Assembly (NCBI GenBank): GCA_964550635.1
Contig: CAZJZV010000002.1
Span: 48,502 to 112,501 of the forward strand
From: an uncultured Bacteroidaceae bacterium
GTDB taxonomy: Bacteria; Bacillota; Clostridia; Christensenellales; CAG-917
Direction: 5' to 3'
DNA: 64,000 nt
The translations under genes and the position numbers were made by a program. Each line of letters starts with the position of its first letter. Position 1 is the first letter of the stretch. The notes under the pieces are model-generated. The model was not told where the DNA came from. It saw nothing but the letters and a program-made list of their open reading frames with translations, and searched no databases. This document shows positions 11,555-31,980 of the stretch, piece by piece.

Positions 11555-11682
11555 CATATTGAGGGAGTAATTCCGCTAGTTTTATGCGAGGCATACCCGT
11601 CAGTACGGCCGTATGGTCCGGGGTGCTTATAGAGAATGAGACTCATGTGCAATCAAAGGCGAAGCGCATGGGTTTTTATTTT
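11555..11682 (+). promoter_or_regulatory. Probable yybP-ykoY (Mn2+) riboswitch with terminator expression platform
   Basis: 5' TTGAGGGAGTAAT resembles the conserved GGGGAGUAG. 3' TTATAGAGAATGAGAC resembles the conserved AGAGAGAC side. P1 pairs CATATTGAG with CTCATGTG. The 3' P1 strand overlaps terminator CATGTGC-13nt-GCGCATG followed by GGTTTTTATTTT. It sits upstream of a P-type ATPase. Confidence 0.55.
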
Positions 11683-11721
11683 ATCCTTGCGATTTTGCCG
11701 AAGCCAAAAGGAGTAATTATT

Positions 11722-14421: not shown

Positions 14422-14440
14422 ACTTAAAAGAAAAAAAGAG

Positions 14441-14466
14441 AAGAGCGACTGCGGTCGCTCTTTTTT
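14441..14466 (+). terminator. Intrinsic terminator after the ATPase gene
   Basis: AGAGCGAC-tgcg-GTCGCTCT followed by TTTTT. Confidence 0.8.
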
Positions 14467-14480
14467 AGTAAAAGCGGTTA

Positions 14481-14752
14481 GAATGTCGAAAACAAGCGAA
14501 TAATGACGATAAAAGAAGAATGATGACGATAAAAGAATTATAATGATAAAAGAGCAAAAATAAAGTCGAAAAGACACTAACAATGACGAAATCACACCGA
14601 TAAAGTCAAAAATGCACTAACAATGGAAAAAGTGCAAGAATGACAGCGAAAAAACAAGGATAGTGTCGAAAGAATACGGATAAAGTCGATAATGCAAGAA
14701 TTATGACGAAAGCAGGCGGATAGTGTCGAAACGTGCGGATAGAATGTCGAAA
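14481..14752. repeat. Degenerate tandem array of 14 units with exact 20-bp period (conserved half AATGWCGAAA plus variable half)
   Basis: Conserved 10-mers start at 14481, 14501, 14521 and so on to 14741 (aatgtcgaaa, aatgacgata, gatgacgata, aatgataaaa, aaagtcgaaa, aatgacgaaa, ...). The A-tracts are phased every 20 bp. Confidence 0.9.
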
Positions 14753-14932
14753 AATCACGAACGGTGGCGGTTTGTGTCGGTGGGTTTGACGATAGGGTAG
14801 GCATTCGGACGGTCGGCGGTAATCTTGTTTAGGGCGCAGACTAGCGGTCGATTGATTTGTATATTGAAAGAATAGTGGACAAAATAAACTGTATATTTAT
14901 ATATAATTATTCTTGCGCTTGAAAAGGGTTGG

Positions 14933-14955
14933 TGCTATAATTGATTAAACAATCA
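14933..14955 (+). promoter_or_regulatory. Extended -10 promoter plus small palindrome (candidate TetR operator)
   Basis: TGcTATAAT at 14933-14941, immediately followed by TGATT-aaac-AATCA at 14942-14955. Confidence 0.4.
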
Positions 14956-14988
14956 TTTTAATACTATAGACTAAGGCGGAATAACTGA

Positions 14989-15564
14989 ATGATTAGTGAA
15001 CAAAAACGTCAAAAAAAGAAAGAAGAAATCATGGATAAGTGTTTCGATTGCTATGCGGAGCACGGTCTTGGCAACGTCGGAATTAAGGCACTCGGCAAGG
15101 CATGCGGAATAGCGTCGGGCAGTTTGTACACCTATTTCGACGACCTTGACGATCTTATCGTGCAATCCACTGCGTACGTCATGAGCAAAGTCGAGGACGA
15201 CTTCATGTCCATTGCGCCTAGGTCGGCGGACGAAGTCGCGAAGTTCATCGACGAAGTGCCATATTGGACGGCGCAAAAGCACGGAAAGAAGTATAGGCTT
15301 ATGTATCAAGTCTACACCAATCCCAAATACATAGAAGAAGGCAAGAAGTTTTTTGACGGAGTCAACGAGCGTTACACCGAATATGCGAAGGAACTCGAAC
15401 CCAAAATCGGGATTTCGCATACGATGATTACGCCGTTGATTTTCATTTTAATACGCGCGTGCGTGCACTACGCAATGTTCGATGACGAGTATTATCTCAA
15501 CTCGCAGATCGACGTATTGAAAAAGGCAATCGCACTGTTCGTGACGGACGGCGCAAACAAATAA
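14989..15564 (+). CDS. TetR/AcrR family transcriptional regulator
   Basis: N-terminal HTH (GLGNVGIKALGKACGIASGSLYTYFDD) and an all-helical C-terminal ligand domain. It ends 36 nt before the giant gene. Confidence 0.85.
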   Translation: MISEQKRQKKKEEIMDKCFDCYAEHGLGNVGIKALGKACGIASGSLYTYFDDLDDLIVQSTAYVMSKVEDDFMSIAPRSADEVAKFIDEVPYWTAQKHGKKYRLMYQVYTNPKYIEEGKKFFDGVNERYTEYAKELEPKIGISHTMITPLIFILIRACVHYAMFDDEYYLNSQIDVLKKAIALFVTDGANK

Positions 15565-15600
15565 GGTTTTTTAGAGGAGAAATATCCTCGGAGGTATAGT

Positions 15601-18600
15601 ATGGCAAAGATGAAAAACGCACCAATCGTAGCACTTGCAATTGCAATGATGATTTTGCTCTGCGCGGTCGTTCTGATAGGGGACGGAAACGTAGCGGTCG
15701 CATATGCGGAGGGTGCAAGCACGAACGAAGCACAAATCACGACGTCCGCGGGCGTGACGACGGAGTATGCAACGCTTGCCGAAGCGGTGAGCGCACTGCA
15801 AAATAACGACACGTTGACACTGCTCGGCAACGCGACTCTTGAGAGCGACGTCACCATAAACAAAACCATCACGTTTGATCTTGGCACGTTCTACTTAGGC
15901 GGAACGAGCAAATTGATCATCGGCAATATGGGAGTCGTAAAACTCAACAACGGCACCGTTTCTTGTCCAGTTAAAGTCAACGGCGGATTGAATGGCAACG
16001 CAGCATATGGAAATGACGTTGAAGACTATGGATCTATCAGCGGCGGCACTTTCAATGGAACGGTTAAAGTTTATCAGTTCGGTGAAACGGATAGCAATGC
16101 CATTAGTCTTTTAGGCGGGACATACCTCGGAACCGTAAACAATTACGGCATGATAGGTCATCCGAATCACAAAAATCTTACTCTCGAGTTGGCGGGGACG
16201 GTCAACAATTACGCTTCGATTTTACTCGGCACTTTCAGCGGAATTGTCAACAATAGTGCTTTTATTTCCGGCGGTGAATTTACTGCGATTTCAACGGTCA
16301 ACAATCAAAGACTTGCCGAGTCGAATAATACAAATATTTGCATTTATGGCGGTACGTTCAAAGGCGCGGTCAACAATACAGCTACGACGGTAGACGGCAA
16401 TACGATCACTCCGAAAATCAAAGAGTATACGTATTCCCCCGACGTTGTACCTGTGTTTACAGAAACTTCGACCGTGACCAACAACTCAATAATTGAAAAC
16501 GGTGATTTTAGTGGATCGGTTGCTAATAGCAACACAATCAGCGGCGGCACGTTCAAAGGCGCAGTCACCAATAATAGCGGAGCGACGATTTCGGGTGGTA
16601 CTTTCCAAAGCACCGTCACCAACAGCGGAACGATAGGCGGTGGTACTTCCACCAATGCTGCAACCATCACCAACAATAGCGACGGCACGATTTCGAGCGG
16701 CACTTTCAGCGGAACGGTTGCTAATAGCGGTACGATCAGTGGCGGTACGTTCAACGTGTCGTCTTTGCAAAACAACGGCGGTACGATAAGCGCAGGCACT
16801 TTCACGGTCGGTACTTCTTTTGTCAACGACGGCGGAAATATAAGTGGCGGCGACTTCACTCTGAATTGCAATCTTGAGAATAAAAATGGCGATGGCAATA
16901 ATAATAAAGGAATTTTTGGCGGTACGTTCGCCGAAAGCACCGACACCCAAAAGACTCTCGTGAACTACCCGAATGGAGTAATTAGAGGTGGTGAGTTCAC
17001 GTTTACGAAGTTTGAAAACAATACGTTTGCAAGCAACGGAACTTTTGAAGAATATGGTTTTATATACGGTGGCACTTTCAACGTTGGCGGGGAATTTGCT
17101 ATTATTTTAGGCGGCACCATCAGCACCGGCGAAAGTGATTATATCGTGTTCAACTTGAGAGGAAATGCAGAAAATTACGCTTCCCTTAAAAAATGTCGGT
17201 TCATAAGTTCTTCTTCCGTCACTCTCACAAACTACGGGGCGATAGAAAACGTTACCGTCTCAGTCGAAGTCGACAACGACTGTACGACGATAACATCTCA
17301 TAACTATTCGGGCAACTTGAAGAGCGGTACTTTCAACAAAGAAGTCGTCAACAAAAACAGTGCAACGATTTCAGGCGGTACTTTCTCCGAAAAGGTCACG
17401 AACAACGGCACCATTTCGGGCGGTACGTTCAGCGGAGAAGTAATCAACAATAGCGGAGCGACGATTTCGGGCGGTACTTGCGAAACGACTTCTTCCGTCA
17501 CCAACAACGGTACGGTGAGCGGCGGCACGTTCAAAGGTGTCTTCGTCAACGACGGTACGGTGAGCGGCACAACCGTCTCATTCAGCGGGGGAAGCGCAGA
17601 AGTTATCAACAACAGCATTATGCGCATAAGCAACAATATGGCGTTTTACGAGTGTAAGAGTGTTGTGAACTATGGCACGCTTGACAAGTCATCCGACGGC
17701 AGTGCTTTTTGCACTTTTGCGAAATGCCCTCTCACAATAGATTTAAAGACGGGAGTCACTCCCATGGTTAGCAATTGTTGGATTTATATTGGCGCGTCGG
17801 TGATTATAAAAACACCGAACTGCATCGGCGCAGGCAACCAATTCGACAATTTGGTCAAGGTCGAAGGGCTTGACAATCTTGGTCAAGCACTCAACGACAG
17901 TGCGTTCGTCAACTCTTCCGATGAGTATCTCAATCCATATACGGTAACCTCTTTTGCATCAAACGCCAAGACGGTCGCGCACACTCACGTTATTGATTCG
18001 TCCACGGGACTCTGCGAATGTCATTACGAATGCCCTCACAGCCCGAACGAAGGCGGTCTCTGCAGCGAATGCGGTTATCAATATACCGCAATGGTAGACA
18101 AAGGGGAGTCGGTCAAATATTTCAAAGACTTGCAATCCGCATTCGATTTCGTCAACAGCAGTGACGACGTCGTGACTTTGTTCAAATCGTCGTTCGCCGA
18201 GGACGTGACGATCTCTCACTCCTGCACGATCAAATTCTACAATTCTGAGTTCAATTCGCAACCGAAATCCACCGAGGAAAACGCACAGTATGCGTCCATT
18301 ACCATTGCAGAAGGCGTGGTCGTTTCTGCTAAAGCAACGCATTCTAATGCTCAAATCAATGCCAACATGACGATCAACGGCACTATCCGCAACGCGTCTG
18401 CAGGAGACCGCATACTTTTCAATATTGCGTCTGACGTTGCATATAGTATAACGATCGGCGAAAGCGGCACTTTGCACACTAATCCTACGAGCTACGTCTA
18501 TAACGCCACCAACTACGGCACTTTGGCAGGCGGTTGTTTGGTTAACGTCACCAACTACGGCACAATCGATTCTTTCGTTTTGGACGGCGTGACTTACCGC

Positions 18601-21600
18601 TCCGACATCAGACGAAACGTCGTGAACTACGGCACGATTGCCGATGCGTTGTGTTACAACTTTTACGTCACTGGTACCGTCTTGACGAACGGCGTCGATA
18701 ACACCGATCCCGACAATCCTATCGTGGGCGTCATTTCGGGCGGTACTTTCGCAATCAACGTTGTCAACAACGGATCCATTACCGGCGGCAAATTCACCAA
18801 AAAAGCAGATAGCGGTCACACTATAGAATCCGAACCCGGTCCTGTCGCTCTCACCAACAACGGCACCATTTCAAACGGCACGTTTGAGTGTAACGTAGTG
18901 AACAAGGGCACGATTTCGGGCGGTACGTTCCAAGAGTACACCGGGTACGACAATGATAGGTTTAGTGCGGCAACCGTGACAAGCCAAGGCACCGACACGG
19001 TTTCGGCAGTCATAAGTGGCGGTACGTTCGACCTACCCTTGGAATGCGAATATACGAATATCTCAAACGGTACGTTCAAAAAATCCGTCAAGGTTTCACA
19101 TAGCACGATTTCGGGCGGTACGTTCGAGGACTACGTCGAAAACACTAATTACAGTGAGATTACGAACGGCACTTTTACAGGCTCGGTCAAAAACATATCT
19201 TCCGCTGAAATTAACGGCGGTACGTTCAATCTGACTTCCTTGCATAACGAAGGATATGGCAATATAAAAGACGGCGCGGTCATCACAATCAGAAGCGGCG
19301 GTACTTTCAAAAACGCGACAATGGGAATGATCTATGGTGGACAATTCACTTTGAACGGTGATTTGGAAAATAATGGAAACATTCACGGCGGCACGTTCAC
19401 CAAAGGAGTGGGCAGTAACGTCACTGTCACCAATGGATCAGGCGGTCAAATCACCGACGGAACAGGCGTAACCACCAACGTTACGTTCTTCACCGTGTCT
19501 AAACTCGTCAATCAGGGAACAATCGGCGGCGGAACTTTCACAGTCGATGATCTTGCCATTTGCTCGGTCGATGAGAGTACCGGCTATATTCACGACTATG
19601 GTAGCATTTACGGTGGCACTTTCACTGTTACGAATGCATTTAAACTCGGCGGTAACATACTCGGAAACGTTAATAACTACATCGTGTTCAATATGTCCGC
19701 AAATGCAGATAACTACGTGAATCTCAAATATTGCAAGTTCTTGAAAGCAGGCACGGCAGAATCCGTCACTCTCATAAACTATGCGCGTTTGGAAGACGTA
19801 ATCGTCGCCGTCAACGTCATCAATACGTTGAAAAATTACGACGCATCCGGACTTAGCTCGGCAAATTCTTATGCAGGCGAAATCAGGAGCGGTACGTATA
19901 GTGGCTCCGTCACGAACGCAAGTAGTGTTGCAATTTTGGGCGGTGAGTTCAGTGGCTCCGTCACGAACAACGGCGCGATCACGGGCGGTACGTTCACCAA
20001 CACTTCCACCGTCGTGAACAACTTAGAGATAAGCGAAGGCACCTTCAACGGCGCACTCGTAAACAACGCCGACGGCAGAATTACGGACGGTACGTTCAAT
20101 CTCACGTCCCTTACCAACAAGGGCACGATTTCATCTAACACTTTCACAATCTCCGGGGCTCTCACGAATAGCGGTACGATTTCGGGTGGCACGTTCACCG
20201 CGGCAACCCTTCAAAATTATACGGAATCGGAGAGCGGCGTGACAACAAACGGCACCATTTCGGACGGTGAGTTCACCATTAGCGGTGCCGTCACTCTCAA
20301 GGGCAACGTCGCAAACGTAACCTTTACCTCGGGCGGAACCCTCACCAACTTCGCACAAATCGAAAACAGCGCTTTCGGCGCAACCACCGGCAGTAACGTT
20401 CTTTTCAAAAACTACGGAACAATCAAGAGCGGTACGTTCAAGTGCAACGTGCTCAACACAACTTCCGGTGCCGGCGAAAGCGTCATTCGTGGAAAAATCG
20501 AAGACGGCGTTTTCTACGGCACATTCGAAAACGCACTTTCCGCACAGATTGAAGGCGGCTATTTCATGGGCGCAGTCACGAATAGCGGTGAGATCAGCGG
20601 CGGTACGTTTGTGACCGCAGTCACGAATAACGGTACGATTAACGGCGGTAAGTTCGAGGGCACAAGCGTGGTCGAAAACAACGGCACGATTGCGAGTGTC
20701 ACTGTTGAAGGCACGACGCGCCAAGCCACTTTCAGCGGTGTGGTTTCCAACAACGCGAACGCTACGATTTCGGGCGGAACTTTCAACGGCGGTATTTCCA
20801 ATAGCGGCAATATTAGCGGTGGCACTTTCGCAGAAGGTTTCACCAACAGCGGTACGATTTCGGGCGGTACGTTCAAAGCCACTGCGACAATCATCAACCG
20901 CAGTACAATAAACGGCGGTACGTTCGGCGGTGCGGTCAACAACGAATTGTCGATCACGAACGGCACGTTCAACGGCGCCGTCGCCAACAACGTCGGTGCT
21001 ACCATTTCGGGCGGTACGTTCAGTATAACGTCCTCCGTCGCCAACAACGGCACGATTTCGAACGGCGATTTTGGCGGTGTGGTCAACAACGAAAACACCG
21101 TTTCTGGCGGTACGTTCAGAGGCACCGTAGTCAATAACAAAGTGATCAACGGCGGTATTTTCACGGGCACCGTCAACAACGAAAAAGCAACTAACGACGA
21201 TCCCGCCGTCATCAAAAACGGTGAGAATACGGCTGTTATTTTCAGTGAGTCGTCAGTCGTCAACAACAATAACGGCAGTATCGTAAGCGGCACGTTCGAA
21301 GGTGCGGTCACCAACAGTTGTTCAATCAGTGGCGGCACGTTTGGCGGCGCTGTCACCAACAACGCAAACGCCATGATTACGGGCGGTACGTTTAGCATTG
21401 AAAATCCCCTTACAAACCATGGAATTTTGACGGGAGTTACCGTTCAAGTGTCTCACGCGGCATTAGGCGCCGTTTACGTAGCAAACTACGGCAGAATTTC
21501 GGGCGGTACTTACTCGATCGAGGTCAAAAACTACGACGAAATCAACGGCGGTACGTTTGGCGGAAGGGTCTCGAATATCGCGACCGCGAGTGAGTCATCC

Positions 21601-24600
21601 GAAGAATACGGCATAATCTTGGAAGGTACGTTCAACGGCGCAGTCACCAACGACGGCATCATCGGCACCATCGATACCACCGACCCCGAGGCTATGAACG
21701 AAAGAATCGTATTCAACGGCACCGTCACCAACAACCACATAGTCTACTGCGGAACCTTCAAAGACGCCGTCACCAACAACAATTTGCTCTCCGGCGGTGT
21801 GTTCACGGAAACTTCCACCATCACCAACGCAACGACTTCTGCGGAAATCGATGGCGGTCAATTCAAAGGAGCGGTCTCTAACAAAGGTGAAATTTCCGCT
21901 GCTTTGTTCTATGGAACGATCACGAACGACGGCACTATTTCAGAAGGAACTTTCGAAAACGCGGTCACGAACAACGGTACGATTAGCGGCGGTAGGTTCA
22001 ACATAGATAGCGCAGTCATAAACTACGGAGAAATCAACGGTCGATTGGCACGTTTCATTGATACGGTCGAGAACAAAAACGTCGGTACGATTACAGCGGG
22101 CATTTTCAACTACGTCGTCACCAATTACGGTGTAATAAACGGAGCTAATGCGACATTCAACTATGCGGTCGTCAACAACGGAACAATAAGCAACGGCGAT
22201 TTCTGGTTTTCGGTTGTCAACAATAGCGGTGCAACCATTTCGGGCGGTACCTTCAACATATACGTAAACCCCTTGCAAAATAGTGGTACGATAAACGGCG
22301 GTACTTTCGAGGGCGCAGTCACCAACAACGCAAACGGCACGATTTCGGGCGGTACGTTCGAGGGCGCAGTCACCAACAACGGTATTATCACCAGCGATAC
22401 CATTAGTGCAATTTCCACCTATCCCAAATTCACCGCGGCGGTCACCAACTACGGCAAGATTACTTCGATCTCCGCGAGCGACGCTTTCAGCGGTGCGAAT
22501 TGCTCTCTCACAAACTACGGCTCTCTCGGAAAATACGTGGATGATTCTTCTTCGATCGGTCTCGGCGGCGGTAGCGTCACCTTCAATTGCCCGGTCACTT
22601 TCGAGAGTAGCGATTCCGTCACGGCTCTTGCAATCGGTTGTACGTTCAAGGGTAGCGTGAGCGTCAAAGTCGCAGAATCAATTGGATTTGATAACGTCTT
22701 TGATGCCACTGTCACCGCAGTCGGTTTCGACAATCTCGGCGCGGTGCTAAATAACAGTGCGTTCGTCAGAGATACGTCTTCGTCTACCGAGTTCGTCAGT
22801 CCCTACGCGGTCACGTCTTTGACCACAGTCAGAACGATCAGTCACACGCACACCTACGGCGATAGCACCACCGGGCTCTGCGAATGCGGTAAAGAATGCA
22901 ATCACGAAAGCGCAAACGAAAGCGGTATCTGCGCGACCTGCGGTTGCCAACTCCAAGCAAAAATCCAAAATACTTCGGGCGGAAGCAAAAACTACATGCG
23001 TTTGAAAGATGCGGTTGAGGCTCTCGTCGACAACGACGTACTCACCGTGTATTGCGACGTCACCTACGATGCGGATATAACCATCAACGCATCCTGCACA
23101 ATCAACTTGGTCGGGAAAAAGTTGATCGGCGACGATATTCCGTCTAAATTTGTAGTCATCGATCCCGTATATGCAAAACTCATAATCGCAAGCGGGAAGA
23201 CCGTCGTTATCAGCGGCACTTCCGCAAGCAAGGGCGAACTCAATTCGTCTATCACCGTTCAAAGCGGCGCAACTCTAATCTTGAACGAAATCAAGATGAC
23301 TCCCGACAATAGTTCGTTGTTAAGTGGTGATGAAGATAGATACGTCATCGAAAACCACGGCACGATCGACGTCGCGGAAGGTCAAGCGGTGACTTCATCC
23401 GCGTTGAAAGGCAAACTCGTCAACTACGGCACTATCAAGGGCGGTGAATTCTCCGCAGTCAACGCGAATAACGGTTCGGTCAACTACGGCACGATCGTGG
23501 ATGCGTTCGTGAGCGTTGCCTTCACCAACTACGGCACGATTAGCGGCGGCGCATACTCCGGAAACGTCAACAACTCTTCAACCGTCGTCGAAGAAGTCGC
23601 GATGAACGGCTCGATCACTCGAGGCAATTTCAACTGCACAGTCAACAACAACGCAAACTGCGTGATTTCGGGCGGTACGTTCAACGTTCGGTCTATCGTC
23701 AACAACATCGGTACGATTTCGGGCGGTACGTTCAACGGCACAGTCAACAACAACGGATTGACGAGCGGTGAAACCACAATTCCCGCAATCATCGACAAGA
23801 ACGAAAGCGGTGTGAAACCCGTGTTCAGCGACGTTTCCATCGTCAATAACTACGGTACGATCAAAGACGGCAAATTTTTCGGGGAAGTCAAGAACTATTC
23901 TTCGATCGAAAACGGCACTTTCACAGGAAAACTCGTCAACAACGCAAACGGCACGATTTCGGACGGTACGTTCGATCTCGCATCGGGATGTGATAACTAC
24001 GGAACTATCTCAGACGGCACGTTCAACCTTGAGAATAATCTCGTGAACTTCGGCACGATAACTAGCGGTACGTTTGCTCTTGCAAGCACTGCGAACGACA
24101 ACGTCATCATTGAAAACTTCGGTGTTATTGGCGGCGGCACGTACACTGTCAGAATAGTCAACAGCGCAAGCTACGACGACGTCGAAGAAGAGTGGACCGT
24201 CGGTGAAATCAAGGGCGGTACGTTCAGTAAATTGACTGAAAACTGCGGCGCTATCATCAGTGGCGGTACGTTCAGTGCAATCGTCAGCAACACTTGCGAA
24301 AACGTCGCGGGCGAAATCAAGAAGGGTATCATCAAAGGCGGTACGTTCAACGCGGTTAGCAACTCAGCTATCATTAGCAAAGTGGATAGCAGATTCCAAC
24401 CCACTTTCAACGGACAAGTCGACAACGCTGACACCATCGAGGGCGGTATCTTCAATCAGATCGTCTACAACGTGTCGAACGGCGTGATTAGCGACGGACA
24501 ATTCAGATTTGTTAGCGAAGAAGACGATGCAGTCGTGAACTACGGCATCATCAACGGCGGTGTGTTCATCGGCTCTGTCAAAAACTACGGCACTATCGAT

Positions 24601-26637
24601 AACGTTGCAGGTCGCCCCGTCTTCAACGGTCTTGTAACAAACGGCAATATCATCAAAGACGGCGTGTTCAACGGAGCAGTCGAAAACGCGCAAACCGCAT
24701 CCGGTTATAGCAAAATCGAAGGCGGCGTCTTCAACGGTCTCGTCACCAACAACGGCGAAATCTACAACGGCAGTTTCAGCAGCGTAGAAAACAAAGGTTA
24801 TATCTTCGGCGGTACGTTTAGCGGCACCGTCAACAACGAACGCAAAGTCCAATTCGTGAAGAACGACTTGCTCTTCAAAGGCGCGTTCAACAACCTGCCC
24901 ACAGGCTCGATCCAAGACGTCAAGGGCGAAAACGTGTTCACAAACTCGGTGACCAGTAGCGGTTCGATCAGAGATTGCGTATTCTACGTGCCCGTCGTCA
25001 TCAACGGAACGTCTACGGACGTAGTCACGTCAATCGAAAACACCACCTTCAAGAATATCGTAAGCATTGACGCAGTCGGCGTGATCGGCATCGGCACGAA
25101 GTTCGACAACGCAGTGTCTATCGCGACGGATAGCGAATATGCGACTAGCCTTAAAGATACTCTTTACGGTTCAATAGCATTCTTCAAGCTCGTGGACGAA
25201 AACGAAGTCTTGCAAAACGCGGACGTCAAGTCCCTTGCCGAAGTATTCGTCAAACGTCACGCACATAGCGTGTCCGCGGAGACAGGTTATTGCTCTTGCG
25301 GTTACGAATGCGCGCACGAAAACCATTCCGAAGCGGGTGTTTGCGACGATTGCGGATATCAACTTCAAGTCAAAATCACGGGCGAAAGAGGTGAGAAGTA
25401 CGTCAAAGACTTCGCAACCGCGGTGAGTATCTCCGAAATCAACGACGTTTTGACTCTGCTTTGCGACGTGACTATCGCCAAAGACGTCAAATTGGATCAT
25501 TTCGCGGTTATCGAACTCAACGGCAAGTCCATCGGTGGCAACGGCAGAATAATCACCGAAGGAGCGGATAGCGTCGTCGTCATCTTTAGCAATAGCGGTA
25601 CGAGCGGCAAAGTCAACGTAACCGTCAAAGTCGGCGCACAAGTCATCATCGGTAGCGGTGCGTATGCAAACTTCGAGGCAACGAGCGGCAGACTCGCCGT
25701 AAGCGGCGGCACGTACGACAATATCAAAGTCAACGGCGCAACGTTTGAAATCAGTGGCGGTACCGTCGGCACTCTCAGTGTTTGGAACGAAAATGCGAAC
25801 GACGTTTATATCTCGGGCGGTACGTTCACGTCAATCGAACTCTACGGCAACTTGAGTTATTCGGACGTCTTGGCGAATGAATATGCGTACAAACTCTCAT
25901 CCGACGGCACGTTCATCAAACTTGCGGATATGAATTCCGTGACTTCGGTCACCGTGTCCGCTTGCACTGAACACGCTTGGATGAACGGCGTTTGCGACTA
26001 CTGCGGAAAGGTCTGCGACCATATCGGCGGAACCGCAACTTGCACGGATAAAGCAACTTGCACGAATTGCGGTCACGAATACGGCGAAATCAACGCGCAT
26101 AACCATAGCGCACTCACCGAAGTCAAAGCGGTTGCCGCAACCGTGATTTCGATGGGTAATATCGCATACTATCACTGCTCGGCATGCGATAAGTATTACA
26201 CCGACGTGCTTGCGCTCCACGAAATCACCTTTGCCGAAACCATAGTCCAAAAACTCGCTCCGTCTATCATCGAAGGCAACGACGGCTTGTTCGTGAAGAA
26301 TAGCGAAAACGGCTTGACCTTCAAATCAAACGCACTCAAAGAAGATTTCATCGGTGTGTTTGTGGACGGAGAAAAAGTCGCACAAGACAACTATACGTTT
26401 GCGGAAGACGGCACCGAAATCACTCTCGGCGCAGAATATCTCGGCAACCTTGCAAGCGGTGCACATACTCTTGAAATCCGCTCGATAGGCGGTGGCGCAG
26501 TTAGCGCATTCACCATTCAAGACGCACCGAGTGAAGGACTTTCGGGCGGAGCATGGGCAGGCATCGGAATTGCAATCGCAGTGGCGGTGATAGGACTCAT
26601 GTTCGGTTTGATGTACGCATTCAAAAGACGTGCATAA
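15601..26637 (+). CDS. Giant (3,678 aa) secreted, C-terminally membrane-anchored beta-helix-repeat surface protein (Pmp/adhesin-like)
   Basis: GGAGG RBS. Signal peptide ending AVAYA|EG. About 41 exact GGTF plus many G-x-F variants at roughly 18-20-aa spacing. Three Cys/His knuckle motifs and a C-terminal Cys cluster. Terminal hydrophobic helix followed by KRRA. Confidence 0.9.
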   Translation: MAKMKNAPIVALAIAMMILLCAVVLIGDGNVAVAYAEGASTNEAQITTSAGVTTEYATLAEAVSALQNNDTLTLLGNATLESDVTINKTITFDLGTFYLGGTSKLIIGNMGVVKLNNGTVSCPVKVNGGLNGNAAYGNDVEDYGSISGGTFNGTVKVYQFGETDSNAISLLGGTYLGTVNNYGMIGHPNHKNLTLELAGTVNNYASILLGTFSGIVNNSAFISGGEFTAISTVNNQRLAESNNTNICIYGGTFKGAVNNTATTVDGNTITPKIKEYTYSPDVVPVFTETSTVTNNSIIENGDFSGSVANSNTISGGTFKGAVTNNSGATISGGTFQSTVTNSGTIGGGTSTNAATITNNSDGTISSGTFSGTVANSGTISGGTFNVSSLQNNGGTISAGTFTVGTSFVNDGGNISGGDFTLNCNLENKNGDGNNNKGIFGGTFAESTDTQKTLVNYPNGVIRGGEFTFTKFENNTFASNGTFEEYGFIYGGTFNVGGEFAIILGGTISTGESDYIVFNLRGNAENYASLKKCRFISSSSVTLTNYGAIENVTVSVEVDNDCTTITSHNYSGNLKSGTFNKEVVNKNSATISGGTFSEKVTNNGTISGGTFSGEVINNSGATISGGTCETTSSVTNNGTVSGGTFKGVFVNDGTVSGTTVSFSGGSAEVINNSIMRISNNMAFYECKSVVNYGTLDKSSDGSAFCTFAKCPLTIDLKTGVTPMVSNCWIYIGASVIIKTPNCIGAGNQFDNLVKVEGLDNLGQALNDSAFVNSSDEYLNPYTVTSFASNAKTVAHTHVIDSSTGLCECHYECPHSPNEGGLCSECGYQYTAMVDKGESVKYFKDLQSAFDFVNSSDDVVTLFKSSFAEDVTISHSCTIKFYNSEFNSQPKSTEENAQYASITIAEGVVVSAKATHSNAQINANMTINGTIRNASAGDRILFNIASDVAYSITIGESGTLHTNPTSYVYNATNYGTLAGGCLVNVTNYGTIDSFVLDGVTYRSDIRRNVVNYGTIADALCYNFYVTGTVLTNGVDNTDPDNPIVGVISGGTFAINVVNNGSITGGKFTKKADSGHTIESEPGPVALTNNGTISNGTFECNVVNKGTISGGTFQEYTGYDNDRFSAATVTSQGTDTVSAVISGGTFDLPLECEYTNISNGTFKKSVKVSHSTISGGTFEDYVENTNYSEITNGTFTGSVKNISSAEINGGTFNLTSLHNEGYGNIKDGAVITIRSGGTFKNATMGMIYGGQFTLNGDLENNGNIHGGTFTKGVGSNVTVTNGSGGQITDGTGVTTNVTFFTVSKLVNQGTIGGGTFTVDDLAICSVDESTGYIHDYGSIYGGTFTVTNAFKLGGNILGNVNNYIVFNMSANADNYVNLKYCKFLKAGTAESVTLINYARLEDVIVAVNVINTLKNYDASGLSSANSYAGEIRSGTYSGSVTNASSVAILGGEFSGSVTNNGAITGGTFTNTSTVVNNLEISEGTFNGALVNNADGRITDGTFNLTSLTNKGTISSNTFTISGALTNSGTISGGTFTAATLQNYTESESGVTTNGTISDGEFTISGAVTLKGNVANVTFTSGGTLTNFAQIENSAFGATTGSNVLFKNYGTIKSGTFKCNVLNTTSGAGESVIRGKIEDGVFYGTFENALSAQIEGGYFMGAVTNSGEISGGTFVTAVTNNGTINGGKFEGTSVVENNGTIASVTVEGTTRQATFSGVVSNNANATISGGTFNGGISNSGNISGGTFAEGFTNSGTISGGTFKATATIINRSTINGGTFGGAVNNELSITNGTFNGAVANNVGATISGGTFSITSSVANNGTISNGDFGGVVNNENTVSGGTFRGTVVNNKVINGGIFTGTVNNEKATNDDPAVIKNGENTAVIFSESSVVNNNNGSIVSGTFEGAVTNSCSISGGTFGGAVTNNANAMITGGTFSIENPLTNHGILTGVTVQVSHAALGAVYVANYGRISGGTYSIEVKNYDEINGGTFGGRVSNIATASESSEEYGIILEGTFNGAVTNDGIIGTIDTTDPEAMNERIVFNGTVTNNHIVYCGTFKDAVTNNNLLSGGVFTETSTITNATTSAEIDGGQFKGAVSNKGEISAALFYGTITNDGTISEGTFENAVTNNGTISGGRFNIDSAVINYGEINGRLARFIDTVENKNVGTITAGIFNYVVTNYGVINGANATFNYAVVNNGTISNGDFWFSVVNNSGATISGGTFNIYVNPLQNSGTINGGTFEGAVTNNANGTISGGTFEGAVTNNGIITSDTISAISTYPKFTAAVTNYGKITSISASDAFSGANCSLTNYGSLGKYVDDSSSIGLGGGSVTFNCPVTFESSDSVTALAIGCTFKGSVSVKVAESIGFDNVFDATVTAVGFDNLGAVLNNSAFVRDTSSSTEFVSPYAVTSLTTVRTISHTHTYGDSTTGLCECGKECNHESANESGICATCGCQLQAKIQNTSGGSKNYMRLKDAVEALVDNDVLTVYCDVTYDADITINASCTINLVGKKLIGDDIPSKFVVIDPVYAKLIIASGKTVVISGTSASKGELNSSITVQSGATLILNEIKMTPDNSSLLSGDEDRYVIENHGTIDVAEGQAVTSSALKGKLVNYGTIKGGEFSAVNANNGSVNYGTIVDAFVSVAFTNYGTISGGAYSGNVNNSSTVVEEVAMNGSITRGNFNCTVNNNANCVISGGTFNVRSIVNNIGTISGGTFNGTVNNNGLTSGETTIPAIIDKNESGVKPVFSDVSIVNNYGTIKDGKFFGEVKNYSSIENGTFTGKLVNNANGTISDGTFDLASGCDNYGTISDGTFNLENNLVNFGTITSGTFALASTANDNVIIENFGVIGGGTYTVRIVNSASYDDVEEEWTVGEIKGGTFSKLTENCGAIISGGTFSAIVSNTCENVAGEIKKGIIKGGTFNAVSNSAIISKVDSRFQPTFNGQVDNADTIEGGIFNQIVYNVSNGVISDGQFRFVSEEDDAVVNYGIINGGVFIGSVKNYGTIDNVAGRPVFNGLVTNGNIIKDGVFNGAVENAQTASGYSKIEGGVFNGLVTNNGEIYNGSFSSVENKGYIFGGTFSGTVNNERKVQFVKNDLLFKGAFNNLPTGSIQDVKGENVFTNSVTSSGSIRDCVFYVPVVINGTSTDVVTSIENTTFKNIVSIDAVGVIGIGTKFDNAVSIATDSEYATSLKDTLYGSIAFFKLVDENEVLQNADVKSLAEVFVKRHAHSVSAETGYCSCGYECAHENHSEAGVCDDCGYQLQVKITGERGEKYVKDFATAVSISEINDVLTLLCDVTIAKDVKLDHFAVIELNGKSIGGNGRIITEGADSVVVIFSNSGTSGKVNVTVKVGAQVIIGSGAYANFEATSGRLAVSGGTYDNIKVNGATFEISGGTVGTLSVWNENANDVYISGGTFTSIELYGNLSYSDVLANEYAYKLSSDGTFIKLADMNSVTSVTVSACTEHAWMNGVCDYCGKVCDHIGGTATCTDKATCTNCGHEYGEINAHNHSALTEVKAVAATVISMGNIAYYHCSACDKYYTDVLALHEITFAETIVQKLAPSIIEGNDGLFVKNSENGLTFKSNALKEDFIGVFVDGEKVAQDNYTFAEDGTEITLGAEYLGNLASGAHTLEIRSIGGGAVSAFTIQDAPSEGLSGGAWAGIGIAIAVAVIGLMFGLMYAFKRRA

Positions 26638-26653
26638 CCTGCGTTAACACAAC

Positions 26654-26686
26654 AAAAAAACGAGGCACTTTGCCTCGTTTTTTTTT
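26654..26686. terminator. Bidirectional terminator between the giant gene and rubrerythrin
   Basis: AAAAAAACGAGGCA-cttt-GCCTCGTTTTTTTTT. Confidence 0.85.
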
Positions 26687-26785: not shown

Positions 26786-27325
26786 TCAATAATTCTCTTC
26801 GCGAATTTCAAAGTACGCTTGCGGGTGTGCGCAGACAGGGCAGATTTCGGGAGCGGAAGTGCCGACGACGATATGTCCGCAGTTTCGGCATTCCCAAACT
26901 TTGACTTCGCTCTTTGCGAAAACTTCTTGTGTTTCGACGTTGTTGAGAAGTGCGCGATAGCGTTCTTCGTGCGCCTTTTCAATTGCGCCTACCATACGGA
27001 ATTTTTTTGCAAGTTCAGGGAATCCTTCATCTTCCGCGGTCTTTGCAAAACCTTCGTACATATCCGTCCATTCGTAGTTTTCACCGTCTGCGGCGGCAGA
27101 AAGGTTTTCGGCGGTAGAGCCTATGCCGTTGAGTTCTTTGAACCACATTTTTGCGTGTTCTTTTTCGTTGTCCGCGGTTTTAAGGAAGAGAGCAGATATT
27201 TGTTCAAAACCGTCTTTCTTCGCCTTTGATGCAAAATACGTATACTTATTTCTTGCTTGGGACTCGCCTGCAAACGCTTCCATAAGATTTTTTTCGGTTT
27301 GGGTGCCTTGGTATTTGTTAGCCAT
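26786..27325 (-). CDS. rbr: Rubrerythrin
   Basis: Ferritin-like diiron domain plus C-terminal rubredoxin-like CRNCGH...CPVCAH. Confidence 0.9.
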
Positions 27326-27395: not shown

Positions 27396-29918
27396 TTAGC
27401 CGATTGAAATCACTTCATATCCCGCGTCGGTGATTGCGTTTTTCAAAACGTCGTTTGCGATTTCGCCATTCATAGTTACGGTTGCGCTTTTGTTTTCAAG
27501 TGAAACGTCCACGGATTTCACTCCGTTCACGCTTTCCAACGCTTTCTTGACGTGAGCAACGCAGTGCATGCACATCATACCTTCGATTTTCAATGTTTTG
27601 GTCATAGTTGTATCTCCTTGTTGAGTTGTATTATTCGTTTCGGCGGATTTTTCGCCTAGTTGTTTTTTGATTTCGTCAAGGTCGAGAGGAACTCCCGTGC
27701 GCGCGGTATGCTTGTTGATATTGACGGCATTCAGGCGCAGAGCGTTTAGCACCACGCATACGCTCGACAAACTCATCGCCGCCGCTCCTATCATAGGATT
27801 GAGCGTTACGCCGATAGGGGAGAGTGCGCCCGCCGCTATGGGTATGCAAATGCAGTTGTAGATGAATGCCCAGAACAAGTTTTCTTTGACGTTGGCAAGG
27901 GTTTTGCGCGACAGGGTAATCGCTCTTGCAACGTCCGTCAAGTCGGAGTGCATAAGCACGACGTCCGCACTGTCAATCGCAACGTCAGTGCCTGCGCCTA
28001 TCGCAATACCTACGTCCGCAATAGTCAGGGCGGGAGCGTCGTTGATGCCGTCCCCGACCATAATGGTTTTGCCCTGTTTTTTGAGCGCGGTGATAACCGC
28101 CGCTTTGTCTTCGGGTAGCACGTCCGAGATGACGTCATCCACACCGCATTCGTCTGTGATTGCCTTTGCACTGACCGCATTATCCCCGGTCAACATAATT
28201 GCTTTGAGTCCTTGCGCGCGCAATAATTCAATTGCTTGGCGACTGCTTCCCTTGATTTCGTCACGCACCGCGACGAGTCCGATAATCTTTCCGTCAAGGG
28301 AGAGATATAGGGGAGTTTTGCCCTGCGAAGCAAGTCTATCCCCGATTGCGATTTCGTCCGCGTTATCTCCGTCAAGATAGGATGCGTTTGTGAGAGAATA
28401 CTCTTTTCCGCCTACGTTTCCTTTTATTCCGTGTCCCACAATCGACAAGAAGTTTTCCGCTTTTTCAGGGGTGAGAGAAAGGGCGGTCGCCTTTTGCAAA
28501 ATGGCGGAAGCGATAGGATGCTCGCTCCCTTCTTCAAGGCTTGCGGACATGGACAAAATCTCGTTTTCGCTCAAGTTTGAAAAGGATATGACGTCCGTGA
28601 CTTCGGGGGTGCCTTTCGTGATAGTGCCCGTCTTGTCAAGCACAACGATATTGGATTTTCCCGTTTCTTCAAGGGCGGTGGCACTCTTGAAAAGTATGCC
28701 GTTTTTCGCACCCTTTCCGTTGCCTACCATGATAGCGACTGGGGTTGCAAGACCGAGTGCGCAAGGGCAACTGATGACAAGCACGCTTATTGCGTGAGTG
28801 AGAGATTCGGGCAGGTTTTTGGTGACCGCTATCCAAACGATGAAAACCACCAAAGCAACCGAAATGACACTTGGCACGAATATTCCCGACACTTTATCTG
28901 CCGTTTTTGCGATTGGAGCCTTTGACGACGACGCTTCTTCGACGAGTTTCACGATCTTGCCGAGAGTTGCGTTTTCACCGACTTCGATCGCGTGGACGGT
29001 GAGAAATCCGTTCACGTTAGCGGTGCCCGACAACACCTTATCCCCGACCGTTTTGAAGACGGGTAGACTCTCACCCGTGACCGACGATTCGTTGACCGAC
29101 GACGAGCCGGACACGACTATTCCGTCTGCTGGGAAGTTTTCTCCGGGGCGCACCGCAAACACGTCGTACTTCTTGAGTTCGCCTATAGGGATTTCCTTTT
29201 CTTCACCGTCGACGACAACTCTGACCACGTCGGGCGCAAGGCTCATAAGTCCTTTGATTGCGGAAGTCGTTTTGCCTTTGCTATACGCTTCCAACGTCTT
29301 GCCTATCGTTATCAGGACGAGTATCATCGCCGCCGACTCAAAATAAAGTCCGTGAATGATTTCGTGTGCTTGTTCGGGGTGTACGCCGAGTTTTATCGTC
29401 AATGCAACGCTATACAAAAACGATATTCCGCTCCCCATTGAAACGAGCGTATCCATATTGGGCGCGCGGTGGAGTAGACTTTTCGTCCCGCTCACGAAGA
29501 AGTGGTTGTTCACGAGAATTATCGCAAGGGATAAGACCATTTCGTATATCGCAATCACGATTGGGGACTTCATGAAGTCGGGGACGGGGAAGTCGAACAT
29601 AACGTACCCCATCGAAACGTAGGACAGGGGAATTAGCAACAGTGCGGATACAATCAGACGGATGACCATTTTGAAAATGGGATTGATTTTTTCGCCGTCG
29701 ATTTTTTCGCTTGCGGGGGTTGCTTTGTATCCTGCGTCCGCAACCGCTTTCGAGATGATTTCACTGCTTGCGGGGGAGGAAAAAACTACGGTCATGGAGT
29801 TTGTCAACAGGCTCACCGCCACTTCACTGACTCCGTCCACACCGCTCACCGCTTTTTCCACTCTTGCGCTACACGCGGAGCAGGTCATACCTTGAACGTT
29901 GAATTTGAGTTTTTCCAT
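27396..29918 (-). CDS. copA: Copper-translocating P1B-type ATPase with N-terminal HMA and an in-frame C-terminal CopZ-like HMA domain
   Basis: GMTCSAC (N-terminal HMA), SCPCALG (CPC), [13 protein letters not shown], and a C-terminal [15 protein letters not shown]... HMA. Confidence 0.9.
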
Positions 29919-29919
29919 A

Positions 29920-30237
29920 CTACTTCAATTTTTTCACAAGGTCGATAGTTTCATCCATAATTTCGGCGTTACCGCTCAAAACGTTTTCGACCACGCAGGT
30001 TTTCAGGTGCTCTTCGAGAATGATATAGCCAAAACTCTGCAACGCTTTTTCGACGGCGGATATTTGTATCAAAATATCTCCGCAGTAGCGGTTGTCCGAA
30101 ATCATTCCTTTGATACCGCCCAGTTGACCGATAATTCTATTCAATCTATCGTTGAGAGATTTGAGTTGTTTTTCGTCGCGGGGTGTGTTTTTACGTCTGT
30201 CTGCGCAGTGGCAACAGGGTTGATTGTTTTCGTTCAT
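29920..30237 (-). CDS. csoR: CsoR-family copper-sensing repressor
   Basis: DUF156-like [16 protein letters not shown] with conserved Cys/His/Cys positions ([13 protein letters not shown]). Sits immediately upstream of copA. Confidence 0.9.
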
Positions 30238-30378: not shown

Positions 30379-31980
30379 ATGAAAAACCTATTCGCAAAAA
30401 TTACGATAATCGCAGTTTGTGCGCTCTTTGCAGTAGCACTTGTTTTCGGCTCGACCGATAGCGGTGTAGCATTCGCCTACAACAATAGCACCGAAGGGTG
30501 GGAAGAAGGCGTTTTCAACAATCTCGACTACGGCATTTATTGGTATCAAAAGGGAAGGGAAGTCCCTGTCAAGTGGGATAATCCCAATGCAAATTTCGAT
30601 CCGTCCCGTCCGACCGTCATTTTCACACACGGTATGAAACAAAACGAAGGATTTTATTGCCGTGATATTCTTTCAACCTACGAAGATACCCGCGGTTATA
30701 TGAGCAGTGCGGGCGTCGATTACAACACGGAATACTACGAGAAATATATCGATATGGGTTACAACGTGGGGCATTTCTATTGGAATCAACTCTCCGAAGA
30801 ATCCATAACCGGCGACATGAAAATTTGGTCGTCGGATACCGATCTCGGCATGCGCTACTTTGTGTCGGACGAAAGCGGTAAACGGGTGCAGGGGGACGAG
30901 AGCAAAAACCCCACTAAATCGGTTTCCGTCTTGTATGCGGAAAACATAATCTCCGCACTCGGCGAGAATTATAACGGCACTCTTCACCTTATCGGGCATT
31001 CGATGGGCGGGGATTTGTCCCTTGCGGTTGCGGAAAATCTCTCTATGATGAACGACGACGGCAAGATTTCCGATAATCTCGTGCCCACTCGCGTAACCAT
31101 GCTCGATCCCTATCTCAGTGTGACTCGCGTTGACGGACATATCGACCATAGGGGCGGTGTGGACGCGGAAGGAAAGAGCATAGCGGAACTTTGCTCGGAA
31201 GCGGTCGTAACCCTTGCAAACAGGGGAGTCGCTATCGACGGATACGGCGCGGGTATGTTCATCTACACGCAATATTCGAGCCCTATGGGACAGTTGTCAT
31301 ACGGAGATGATTCGGGAACAATCGAACTTCTCACCGAAAGATTTTCGGACAACTGCGTATGGGTGCACCTTGACGGACTCGACAGTGTCTACGGCATGAC
31401 GAGAACTCACTGTGTGGTGCCCGACTACTTCTTCTTGTCCTTGTATCAAGAAAAAGGCGTTGACAATTTCGGGGACGAAGTGCCGTGCGCACTCTCCACT
31501 GCGGACGAGATTTACGCACTGCGCGGGCGCGCCTATTCGCAAACGATTTCGTCAAAGACGGAGAAGAAATCATATCTCATATCGGACAGCGATTTCACGA
31601 GAGTAGACCGCAACAAAAACAAAGTCAATCTCATTGTGAATTTCACCGTAAACGACGTTTATTGTGCGAAAGTGTTGAATGAAGTCGGCGAAGTGGTATA
31701 TTCGAGAAATTCCAACGCTCCCATAAACCGCTTGGAAATGGGACTTGAAGAAGGTGTTTATACGATTGAATACTACAATGTGGACGGTGTGACGGATAGC
31801 GCAAACAATCAAACGGTAACACTGTTGGAAGACGACTGCGAAACCCTTGAAATGAGCGTGAGCATAGCGCCGCAAAAAGCAGAGAAAAGCATGGTTTGGC
31901 TCTATGCGCTTCTCGGAGTGCTTGGCGGAATTACGATAGCGTTTGCCGTCACTTGCGCCGTCCTTATGACGAGAAAATAA
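30379..31980 (+). CDS. Secreted, C-terminally membrane-anchored alpha/beta hydrolase (lipase/esterase-like)
   Basis: N-terminal signal/TM segment. GHSMGG nucleophile elbow. Beta-sandwich-like C-terminal region. Terminal TM helix followed by MTRK. Confidence 0.6.
   Translation: MKNLFAKITIIAVCALFAVALVFGSTDSGVAFAYNNSTEGWEEGVFNNLDYGIYWYQKGREVPVKWDNPNANFDPSRPTVIFTHGMKQNEGFYCRDILSTYEDTRGYMSSAGVDYNTEYYEKYIDMGYNVGHFYWNQLSEESITGDMKIWSSDTDLGMRYFVSDESGKRVQGDESKNPTKSVSVLYAENIISALGENYNGTLHLIGHSMGGDLSLAVAENLSMMNDDGKISDNLVPTRVTMLDPYLSVTRVDGHIDHRGGVDAEGKSIAELCSEAVVTLANRGVAIDGYGAGMFIYTQYSSPMGQLSYGDDSGTIELLTERFSDNCVWVHLDGLDSVYGMTRTHCVVPDYFFLSLYQEKGVDNFGDEVPCALSTADEIYALRGRAYSQTISSKTEKKSYLISDSDFTRVDRNKNKVNLIVNFTVNDVYCAKVLNEVGEVVYSRNSNAPINRLEMGLEEGVYTIEYYNVDGVTDSANNQTVTLLEDDCETLEMSVSIAPQKAEKSMVWLYALLGVLGGITIAFAVTCAVLMTRK

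Follow-up and report, generated by a model that had tools for sequence, protein, structure and literature searches.

What does a protein of 3,678 amino acids (aa) do that is encoded by a single gene of an uncultured bacterium and is covered by no family model? This question is raised by the giant gene at positions 15601 to 26637 of the plus strand in the window, that is, in the whole 64,000-nucleotide (nt) stretch of contig CAZJZV010000002.1 analyzed here. The open reading frame (ORF) is intact, and the length of its product is as given in a preliminary description made from the sequence, which had proposed a new family of giant adhesins or surface fibers. Our analysis suggests that the product is probably a membrane-anchored fibrillar cell-surface protein that serves multivalent contact or spacing.

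The giant gene is intact and its repeats are old

The ORF is the only long frame of its region, and an identical protein (P0269) is on record from an NCBI assembly, where it is encoded on a 177-kb contig; exact look-ups of the window protein and of the M18 peptidase in a contig index gave no match. In addition, two independent Logan assemblies contain variants of 3,709 and 3,713 aa (P0121 and P0270), which are 94.6 to 94.8% identical to the window protein, with only 37 to 41 gap positions. P0121 is encoded on a contig (L082) with the same upstream genes for a cation ATPase and a TetR regulator. The existence of the 3,678-aa ORF, as first described, is thus confirmed. Self-similarity of the giant gene at the DNA level was at most 76% over at most 110 nt, and Tandem Repeats Finder detected almost nothing in the gene and no near-identical arrays. 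This divergence indicates that the repeats are old and that assembly collapse is not a concern.

The ratio of nonsynonymous to synonymous substitution rates (dN/dS) between the window and L082 was 0.355 for the giant gene, compared to 0.05 for the neighboring ATPase gene and 0.12 for the TetR gene. Most of the protein showed values of 0.15 to 0.5, indicating purifying selection, whereas aa 1497-2216 are near neutral (0.8 to 1.1). The strain variants differ by a few indels of 1 to 4 residues and by two 15-residue insertions, each of them one exact repeat unit. In P0121 and P0270, these insertions (VTNNGVISNGLFDSL and SGGTFSGNVKNDSTI) are located at aa 1658 and 1834 (window positions 20575 and 21103), and both fall where dN/dS is about 1. 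In a more distant genome (GCA_964563025.1), in which the flanking genes show ~77 to 84% DNA identity, the same chromosomal slot (between the M18 aminopeptidase/tRNA genes and the rubrerythrin/copper-ATPase genes) holds a homolog of only 1,518 aa, with one GGTF rod instead of the three of the window protein. Exposed surface proteins typically evolve fast and vary in length. The raised dN/dS, the whole-repeat indels, and the short syntenic homolog fit what is typical of an exposed surface protein.

The repeat has a period of 15 or 17 residues

The protein contains exactly 41 GGTF tetrapeptides, compared to a mean of 0.4 and a maximum of 4 in 1,000 shuffles of the protein. Variants are also present (SGTF, 5; DGTF, 4; EGTF, 3; GGEF, 5; GGQF, 2; GGTY, 4), and motifs of the general G-G-x-F type number 95. 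The earlier estimate of about 41 GGTF motifs plus these variants was therefore accurate, including the proportions. The same applies to the composition, described as rich in Gly, Thr, Asn, and Ser and poor in charge: G+T+N+S make up 44.5% and D+E+K+R 13.6% of the residues. In contrast, the period of 18 to 20 aa has to be corrected. The motif spacing is bimodal, with peaks at 17 and 15 aa that comprise 21-22 and 16-18 cases, respectively, and the consensus unit is N-x-G-T-I-S-G-G-T-F-x-G-x-V-x(-N-N).

Paralogous modules are joined by putative Cys/His hinges

Internal comparison revealed three long and one short paralogous modules, which confirmed the macro-modules and lead-ins previously assigned to these positions (coordinates of all features are given in Table 1). 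Two paralogous blocks pointed out in the preliminary description were also recovered, at 17137-17259 and 19672-19806. The modules open with the pattern Y-x-x-L-x-x-A-V-x-A-L-x-x-x-D-x-L-T-L-L...T-I-D-L-x-G. Macro-modules 1 and 3 could be aligned end to end (aa 49-827 with aa 2458-3254; 30% identity, E 5e-43). Macro-module 2 contains sequence related to module 1 twice: aa 135-571 of module 1 align to aa 964-1417 with 35% identity, and aa 110-832 align to aa 1656-2455, in the second half of module 2, with 33% identity (E 6e-68). The short module 4 aligns with the corresponding module of the homologs P0001 and P0002.

The long modules close with a conserved cap block, which leads into the motif HxH-x(7-8)-CxC-x3-CxH-x(6-8)-CxxC (at aa 794, 2415, and 3220). 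The full hinge motif is present at all three module junctions; outside the protein's own three-member cluster, it was detected in 6 of 267 fetched proteins (P0001, P0002, P0153, P0180, P0204, and P0261). Its pattern suggests that it corresponds to one unit of the Cys/His repeats that precede the C-terminal immunoglobulin (Ig) domain, and that the hinges may be zinc knuckles.

The C terminus carries a stalk-type cassette and a predicted membrane anchor

Hydropathy analysis detected only two hydrophobic segments. The first (aa 2-18), which is also the hydropathy maximum, belongs to the signal peptide, and the expected cleavage site between AYA and EG is present, in line with the preliminary description. 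P0002 has an analogous N-terminal signal with cleavage between ANA and GD. The second segment (aa 3646-3673) is followed by KRRA, and the C-terminal end of the protein reads APSEGLSGGAWAGIGIAIAVAVIGLMFGLMYAFKRRA. These signals predict a single-pass type I topology (N-out/C-in). The term "tail-anchored" used before was thus a misnomer, since an N-terminal signal peptide is present.

The remaining observations made earlier on the C terminus were borne out. No LPxTG, (S/P)PxTG, or NPxTG motif was found anywhere in the protein by regular expression search, and Pfam detected neither SLH nor choline-binding modules. None of the NCBIfam models of C-terminal sorting signals matched (best, Rumino_NPXTG with E 2.4). 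A GlyGly-CTERM/rhombosortase-like signal was also considered; no model matched, no rhomboid gene was among the window ORFs scanned with Pfam (a scan that took in ~40 of the larger ones), and this candidate was left as speculative.

The sole PDB sequence matched by the whole protein was the immunoglobulin A (IgA) protease of Thomasclavelia ramosa (9qa6_A residues 982-1071, E 1.3e-11 in phmmer). When a profile of the C-terminal region was used in hmmsearch, two significant stretches of 9qa6_A were matched, residues 850-899 and 936-1071 (whole-sequence E 1.5e-26); the match of the Cys/His rod comprises residues 850-899 and 936-985. The similarity is confined to residues 850-1071. In the IgA protease, four C-terminal domains (CTD1 to CTD4) form a stalk that projects the catalytic domain from the cell, and small-angle X-ray scattering and modeling showed this stalk to be extended (PMC12415215). 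CTD3 is an I-type Ig domain, and CTD2 and CTD4 are extended "periscope" rods of beta-sheets, which are thought to be linked by predicted Zn-binding Cys/His sites (PMC12415215). An AlphaFold2 model of aa 3220-3678 of the giant protein (m94daf28935a4) contains the Ig domain with high confidence. In a Foldseek search, this domain was similar to Ig domains of titin and Robo (E 3e-4 to 2e-3; target-normalized template modeling [TM] score, ~0.5-0.6). Searches with family models gave weak matches to Shr-like_HID and CBM_X2. We conclude that the Cys/His rod and the Ig domain are homologs of the IgA protease stalk domains. The statement that the giant protein belongs to no recognizable characterized family therefore holds for Pfam and NCBIfam, which do not cover it, and fails for the C-terminal cassette, which has a relative of solved structure.

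The motif EGLS(G/A)GAWAGIGIAIA...K(K/R)R is kept in P0001, P0002, and P0268, which are 42-52% identical to the window protein over the aligned C-terminal region. More distant homologs with the same Ig domain (P0016, P0035) have a sortase-type IPSTGD or SPKTGE sequence before the helix. A query with the last 229 aa returned a single match, owing to the word index of the search and the very large size of the database. P0268, from Logan, is 52% identical over the last 229 aa. This 350-aa protein is a miniature in which the signal peptide and a small number of coils are followed by the same cassette of Cys/His rod, Ig domain, and anchor. Thus, the stalk cassette exists almost on its own.

The repeat region is modeled as a beta-solenoid

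At E≤1, neither Pfam nor NCBIfam returned a family for the whole protein, and nothing above threshold was obtained with 27 sub-segments. Models of Pmp, POMP, autotransporter, pectin-lyase, and CASH families matched neither the whole protein (E≤1) nor the segments (E≤10 or E≤1). This includes PF02415 (Chlam_PMP) and TIGR01376, for which the whole protein and the repeat segments were negative at E≤1, as well as PF13229, PF05048, PF12708, and related models, for which the protein and its segments gave no match. These searches had been suggested in the preliminary description together with a likeness to chlamydial Pmp repeats. This likeness is not supported by the models. Pfam also detected no beta-barrel translocator, and the C terminus consists of the Ig domain and the single helix. 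When a profile of the repeat region was compared to PDB sequences, no match was obtained at E≤10.

An AlphaFold2 model of aa 2415-3256 (mc46658c98f62) was built with a 30-row alignment and has a mean predicted local distance difference test (pLDDT) score of 67. In this model, ~410 consecutive residues (aa ~2445-2855), comprising the lead-in and the first ~20 units, reach a pLDDT of 80-94. In the confident part, each unit of 15-17 aa contains three short strands, at xVxN, GTI, and GTF. With three strands per unit, each unit looks like one winding of a three-sided beta-solenoid. Scores are lower for aa 2855-3075 (50-79) and for the cap at aa 3075-3220 (~30); at values of 30-59, caps and hinges are uninformative. 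Of the beta-helix proposed earlier, what is retained is an array that AlphaFold2 models as regular, all-beta, and solenoid-like; the pectin-lyase and CASH models do not match, and the period is 15 or 17 aa.

In Foldseek searches with the rod, the best PDB match was EspP (E 0.11, TM 0.13), which is not significant, and the best BFVD match was a phage pectate lyase (E 1.5e-3, TM 0.13), which we did not count as significant. Among the top neighbors, none of them significant, nearly all are beta-helical rods (EspP, EspC, Ag43, Pet, HxuA, EtpA, Fap2, MpAFP, and phage pectate lyases). The structure prediction supports an all-beta array, with caps and hinges poorly modeled and no significant structural neighbor of the rod.

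When GGTF segments of relatives were scanned singly, Bactofilin was the only recurrent Pfam family (8 of 30 segments, best E 3e-5). The spacing of 15 and 17 aa and the three strands per unit in the model also fit the bactofilin type. At a level below threshold, the nearest sequence signal is that of the bactofilin helix and not the pectate-lyase-type helix with windings of 22-25 aa. The bactofilin helix may be seen as the best structural analogy, which does not imply membership in that family.

GGTF proteins are widespread in Firmicutes

The first 1,200 aa were used as a query in an exhaustive HMMER search of 1.84 billion cluster representatives, and 293 proteins were retrieved. Among the candidates scored in a search with the C-terminal 1,278 aa, 1,443 proteins reached E≤1e-3. 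At least five exact GGTF motifs were present in 179 of 270 fetched proteins. The largest examples seen are the window protein, its two near-identical strain variants, and one protein of 4,937 aa.

The modules combined with the repeat were analyzed in 40 diverse members: nine contained Flg_new_2, five Flg_new, four SLH, and two BspA-type leucine-rich repeats (LRR), and MBG, choline-binding, Cna_B, and GLUG modules were also found. A Beta_helix_3 match was present in one of these 40 distant relatives. The SLH, Flg_new, choline-binding, Cna_B, LRR_5, or sortase signals indicate that the relatives are extracellular and wall associated. Their sequences suggest that the GGTF repeat is a shared building block of wall-associated proteins of Firmicutes, in which the anchors are interchangeable. 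The homology search proposed in the preliminary description thus led to surface proteins of Firmicutes. Of its suggestion of a new giant adhesin or surface-fiber family, a secreted and anchored protein with surface-type relatives remains, whereas the protein is no isolated novelty, since the repeat occurs in well over a thousand database proteins.

A large set of relatives of 1,200-1,900 aa (P0005, P0006, P0010, and similar) all start with MKKRILSLILALSMVLSV. In these P0005-type proteins, GGTF rods alternate with a repeated module of ~150 aa, and a Pro/Glu-rich linker follows. These proteins appear to form a multigene family in a single clade. The one member scanned, P0005, showed a weak Flg_new_2-type match near the C terminus.

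Working model and alternative explanations

In our working model, the protein would be exported by the Sec pathway via its cleavable signal peptide and held in the cytoplasmic membrane, as a type I protein, by the C-terminal helix and its short basic cytoplasmic tail. The membrane-proximal Ig domain and the Cys/His rod, which is probably stabilized by zinc, would form a stalk that most likely carries the remainder through and beyond the cell wall. The remaining ~3,400 residues would constitute the three long and one short paralogous rods, each with a cap-like lead-in followed by the 15- or 17-residue GGTF units. Each unit would be one winding of a narrow, three-stranded beta-solenoid of bactofilin-like size, with Ile, Phe, and Val pointing inward, Gly at the corners, and Asn forming a ladder; its triangular geometry and its handedness are what we infer. 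Single HxH/CxC/CxxC knuckles would join the rods, probably as rigid or metal-dependent hinges. With ~2,700 residues assumed for the solenoid, 16-20 of them in each winding, and a rise of 0.48 nm per winding, ~130-165 windings would yield an extended fiber of ~60-80 nm. The rod surfaces, poor in charge and covered with Thr, Ser, and Asn, would most likely touch glycans, particles, or other cells at many sites and with low affinity, or would simply set the distance of such contacts. In this sense, the label "surface fiber or adhesin candidate" is reasonable.

Several points weigh against this model. Pfam and NCBIfam recognized no ligand-binding head, lectin, or known adhesive domain in the protein, and adhesion is argued by analogy only. 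The rod found no significant Foldseek match, and AlphaFold2 performed poorly for caps and hinges. In the window protein itself, aa 1425-1560 and 3330-3420 reached only 13 bits with the Bactofilin model (E 0.11-0.12), for which the cut-off is 27.9 bits. Further, a membrane anchor does not by itself explain how a protein of this size would cross the wall, the EGLSGGAWAG motif may signal that the C terminus is processed and not retained, and the taxonomic hints on the host, which point to Clostridia or Oscillospiraceae, are weak.

In the strongest competing explanation, although an unlikely one in our view, the protein does not adhere and is a spacer or coat. Long inert rods, densely packed on the cell, could physically bar phage, antibodies, bile, or predators or keep them at a distance, or they could support a capsule. 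This would explain why a head or lectin domain was not found and why the surface carries little charge and uniformly displays Thr, Ser, and Asn. It would also match the purely stalk-like role assigned to the homologous CTDs of the IgA protease. Near neutrality of the central part and its tolerance of whole-coil indels are as expected if length alone matters. However, most of the protein is under purifying selection beyond what length alone would need, and related GGTF proteins are combined with the known binding modules LRR_5, Flg_new, and Cna_B.

Still less likely is that the C terminus is an undescribed sorting signal that is cleaved, so that the mature protein would be covalently linked to the wall or released instead of being a membrane protein. 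The three-part layout of motif, helix, and KRR resembles that of known sorting signals, and IPSTGD or SPKTGE occupies the equivalent place in homologs with the same Ig domain. Moreover, EGLS(G/A)GAWAGIGIAIA is kept in four proteins that otherwise have diverged to the identity given above. Against this, the protein has no sortase motif and matches no NCBIfam sorting model, and the Pfam scan detected no sortase, rhomboid, or exosortase among the window ORFs scanned. The conservation could equally reflect helix-helix packing via small-xxx-small motifs.

We regard it as very improbable that the protein carries an enzyme or a toxin, be it as a beta-helical lyase or hydrolase of polysaccharides or as a contact-dependent effector. 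Many beta-helix proteins are carbohydrate active, and the weak Foldseek neighbors include pectate and alginate lyases and tailspikes. On the other hand, no catalytic, toxin, or immunity domain was detected by Pfam and NCBIfam, windings of 15-17 aa probably leave too little room for the groove and loops of lyase-type helices, and the neighboring genes are unrelated housekeeping and metal-homeostasis genes. A Ca-binding RTX-type or ice-binding role was also considered and set aside: acidic residues are few, and weak taxonomic hints point to a gut habitat. Finally, that the ORF is an assembly or annotation artifact of repeat collapse or expansion, as a repetitive protein and a very long gene might suggest, can hardly be maintained in view of the diverged DNA repeats, the frame kept in two other assemblies, and dN/dS below 1.

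Genomic neighborhood

No terminator-like site was found between the TetR gene and the giant gene, which are 36 nt apart. This suggests regulated cotranscription, and the two genes are probably cotranscribed. Their pairing recurs in the independent contig L082, where the ATPase, TetR, and giant genes are in the same order as in the window. The GC content is unremarkable, and according to the Pfam scan, the surrounding genes are ordinary chromosomal ones (dnaG, rpoD, thrS, murG, metal ATPases, and rubrerythrins).

Table 1. Coordinates of the giant gene, its parts, and adjacent signals in the window
Feature	Position	Strand	Remarks
TetR-family regulator gene	14989..15564	+	PF00440 TetR_N, E 2e-7; 5' of giant gene
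Shine-Dalgarno sequence GGAGG	15590..15594	+	6 nt 5' of ATG; read from sequence
Giant gene, 3,678 codons plus stop	15601..26637	+	ATG start
Signal peptide, aa 1-36	15601..15708	+	K-rich n-region, 19-aa h-region, AYA-EG cleavage site, no lipobox
Macro-module 1, aa 37-793	15709..17979	+	Cap-like lead-in (aa 54-100), GGTF rod, C-terminal cap block
Hinge 1, Cys/His motif HTH-x8-CxC-x3-CxH-x7-CxxC	17980..18072	+	Regular expression match
Macro-module 2, aa 836-2414, double length	18106..22842	+	Partial copy (aa 836-1420) plus full copy (aa 1421-2414)
Hinge 2, Cys/His motif	22843..22941	+	Regular expression match
Macro-module 3, aa 2456-3219	22966..25257	+	AlphaFold2 model and alignment to module 1
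Hinge 3, Cys/His motif	25258..25353	+	Regular expression match
Short module 4, aa 3257-3454	25369..25962	+	Lead-in plus few coils; all-beta in AlphaFold2 model m94daf28935a4, pLDDT 60-86
Cys/His-rich rod, aa 3455-3530	25963..26190	+	Profile match to T. ramosa IgA protease 9qa6_A
Ig-like (I-set) domain, aa 3545-3644	26233..26532	+	pLDDT 82-96; Foldseek; phmmer
Conserved GGAWAGIGIAIA... transmembrane helix and KRRA tail	26545..26634	+	Hydropathy; AlphaFold2 helix at pLDDT <50
Bidirectional intrinsic-terminator-like hairpin, 14-bp stem	26654..26684	.	Common to giant gene and convergent rubrerythrin gene

Between a tRNA gene (10159-10246) and the giant gene, the window contains a segment of ~5.3 kb (10292-15600), which comprises a 215-aa ORF without a Pfam match, a gene for a 945-aa cation P-type ATPase, and the TetR gene. 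In the related genome L001, the syntenic position lacks this ATPase/TetR segment. The tRNA-adjacent locus thus looks prone to rearrangement.

Downstream, two rubrerythrin genes are located less than 7 kb apart (26786-27325, minus strand; 32954-33544, plus strand). The product of the first shows 84-93% protein identity to homologs in many unrelated gut and rumen metagenome-assembled genomes, including bins labeled Bacteroidaceae and Fibrobacter. Such conservation makes this rubrerythrin useless as a taxonomic or synteny probe. A synteny scan with this overly conserved probe yielded 80 loci from many families, none of which contained a related giant gene. At 27396-30237 (minus strand), a copper-type P1B ATPase with two HMA domains is encoded beside a CsoR-family repressor, a standard copper-efflux pair that is syntenic in L001. 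ORFs without a Pfam match encode 533 aa (30379-31980, plus strand; position conserved in L001), 237 aa (32118-32831, plus strand), and 432 aa (59507-60805, minus strand).

Significance

How gut anaerobes adhere to mucus, to food particles, and to one another depends on large surface proteins, and in uncultured Clostridia these are mostly unannotated. Proteins of this general kind are familiar, and databases contain many copies of the repeat; what we describe is a large, structurally distinctive family without a model or structure. The repeat, the hinge, and the C-terminal motif were in none of the Pfam and NCBIfam models, PDB sequences, and papers searched, and a literature search on GGTF, PF20585, and bactofilin-like extracellular proteins found nothing relevant. 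Since well over a thousand predicted proteins contain the GGTF repeat, much of the "hypothetical" surface proteome could be annotated once a family model and a single experimental structure are available. Should electron microscopy reveal a long surface fibril on the host organism, the giant protein would be the obvious candidate.

A bolder reading, which we consider possible but tentative, is that GGTF defines a new class: an extracellular, covalently continuous, triangular beta-solenoid of bactofilin size, used by gut Firmicutes as a modular rod joined by zinc knuckles, with EGLSGGAWAG-helix-KRR as a new sorting or anchoring signal. If true, this solenoid class and its anchor would be an unrecognized route by which monoderm bacteria make surface fibers tens of nanometers long. 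Two features would, if confirmed, be of interest to structural biologists and protein engineers: the possible kinship to the bactofilin helix and the joining of rods by single Cys/His knuckles.

Comparison with known systems

None of the defining sequence features tested places the giant protein among the Pmp proteins, autotransporters, pectin-lyase-type helices (tested by family models), sortase substrates, SLH or choline-binding proteins, IgA proteases, or canonical Periscope Proteins. It nevertheless shares features with several known systems. In the core of the bactofilin BacA, 103 residues form six windings of a right-handed helix; each winding has three strands, the core is triangular, and Gly occupies the corners (PMC4672760). 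The giant protein resembles bactofilins (PF04519), with their Gly corners and hydrophobic triangular core, in having ~17 residues and three short strands per winding. In contrast to the giant protein, bactofilins are small, cytoplasmic, have ~6 windings, and polymerize noncovalently; the giant protein is secreted, would contain ~130-165 windings in one chain, and stays well below the Bactofilin cut-off.

With the T. ramosa IgA protease (PDB 9qa6), it shares the Cys/His rod and the I-set Ig domain next to the anchor, and probably the role of a projecting stalk. However, Pfam detected no M64 metzincin domain and the searches found no other catalytic domain in the window protein, nor was an InlB B-repeat domain (Flg_new) detected. 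Here the passenger would be a beta-solenoid fiber.

The module lead-in (x-Y-x-T-L-x-x-A-V-x-A-L-x-x-g-D-T-L-T-L-L-x-D...T-I-D-L-N-G) resembles a segment of P0016 that matches Pectate_lyase_5 (PF20585, "putative pectate lyase-like adhesive domain"). In hhalign, this similarity reached a probability of 77% and E 2e-5, with only ~58 columns aligned. The four window lead-ins gave no match to the PF20585 model, even at E 10.

Windings of the Pmp and autotransporter type comprise ~20-25 aa, compared to 15-17 aa in the giant protein. Its motif, GGTF...VxNN, also differs from the GGA[ILV]/FxxN of Pmp, it matches neither PF02415, TIGR01376, nor PATR and has no beta-barrel translocator, and its host appears to be a Firmicute. 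What it has in common with the passengers of Pmp, autotransporter, and two-partner-secretion proteins (EspP, Ag43, Fap2, EtpA) are long Gly/Asn-rich repeats and, as predicted here, a projecting beta-helical rod. Fap2 is of similar size.

Finally, we compared the giant protein to Gram-positive fibrillar adhesins and Periscope Proteins, including SasG/Aap and Sgo_0707 (PMC8201768, PMC8286594). According to Monzon et al., a fibrillar adhesin combines a repeat stalk with a recognized adhesive domain (PMC8286594); in the giant protein, stalk-like repeats and an anchor are present, and a known adhesive domain was not detected. It also differs from these adhesins in lacking a sortase signal and in its stalk, which is modeled as a continuous solenoid and not as beads of Ig-like, G5, or SHIRT domains. 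Unlike in Periscope Proteins, whose tandem DNA repeats are near identical and vary in number between strains, the DNA repeats are old and diverged (≤76%), and strains differ in repeat number by two single-unit indels only. A signal peptide, a long repetitive stalk, a C-terminal anchor, and length differences between strains and species are common to all of them. By analogy, the giant protein may function in the same way as beta-helical surface fibers known from other bacteria.

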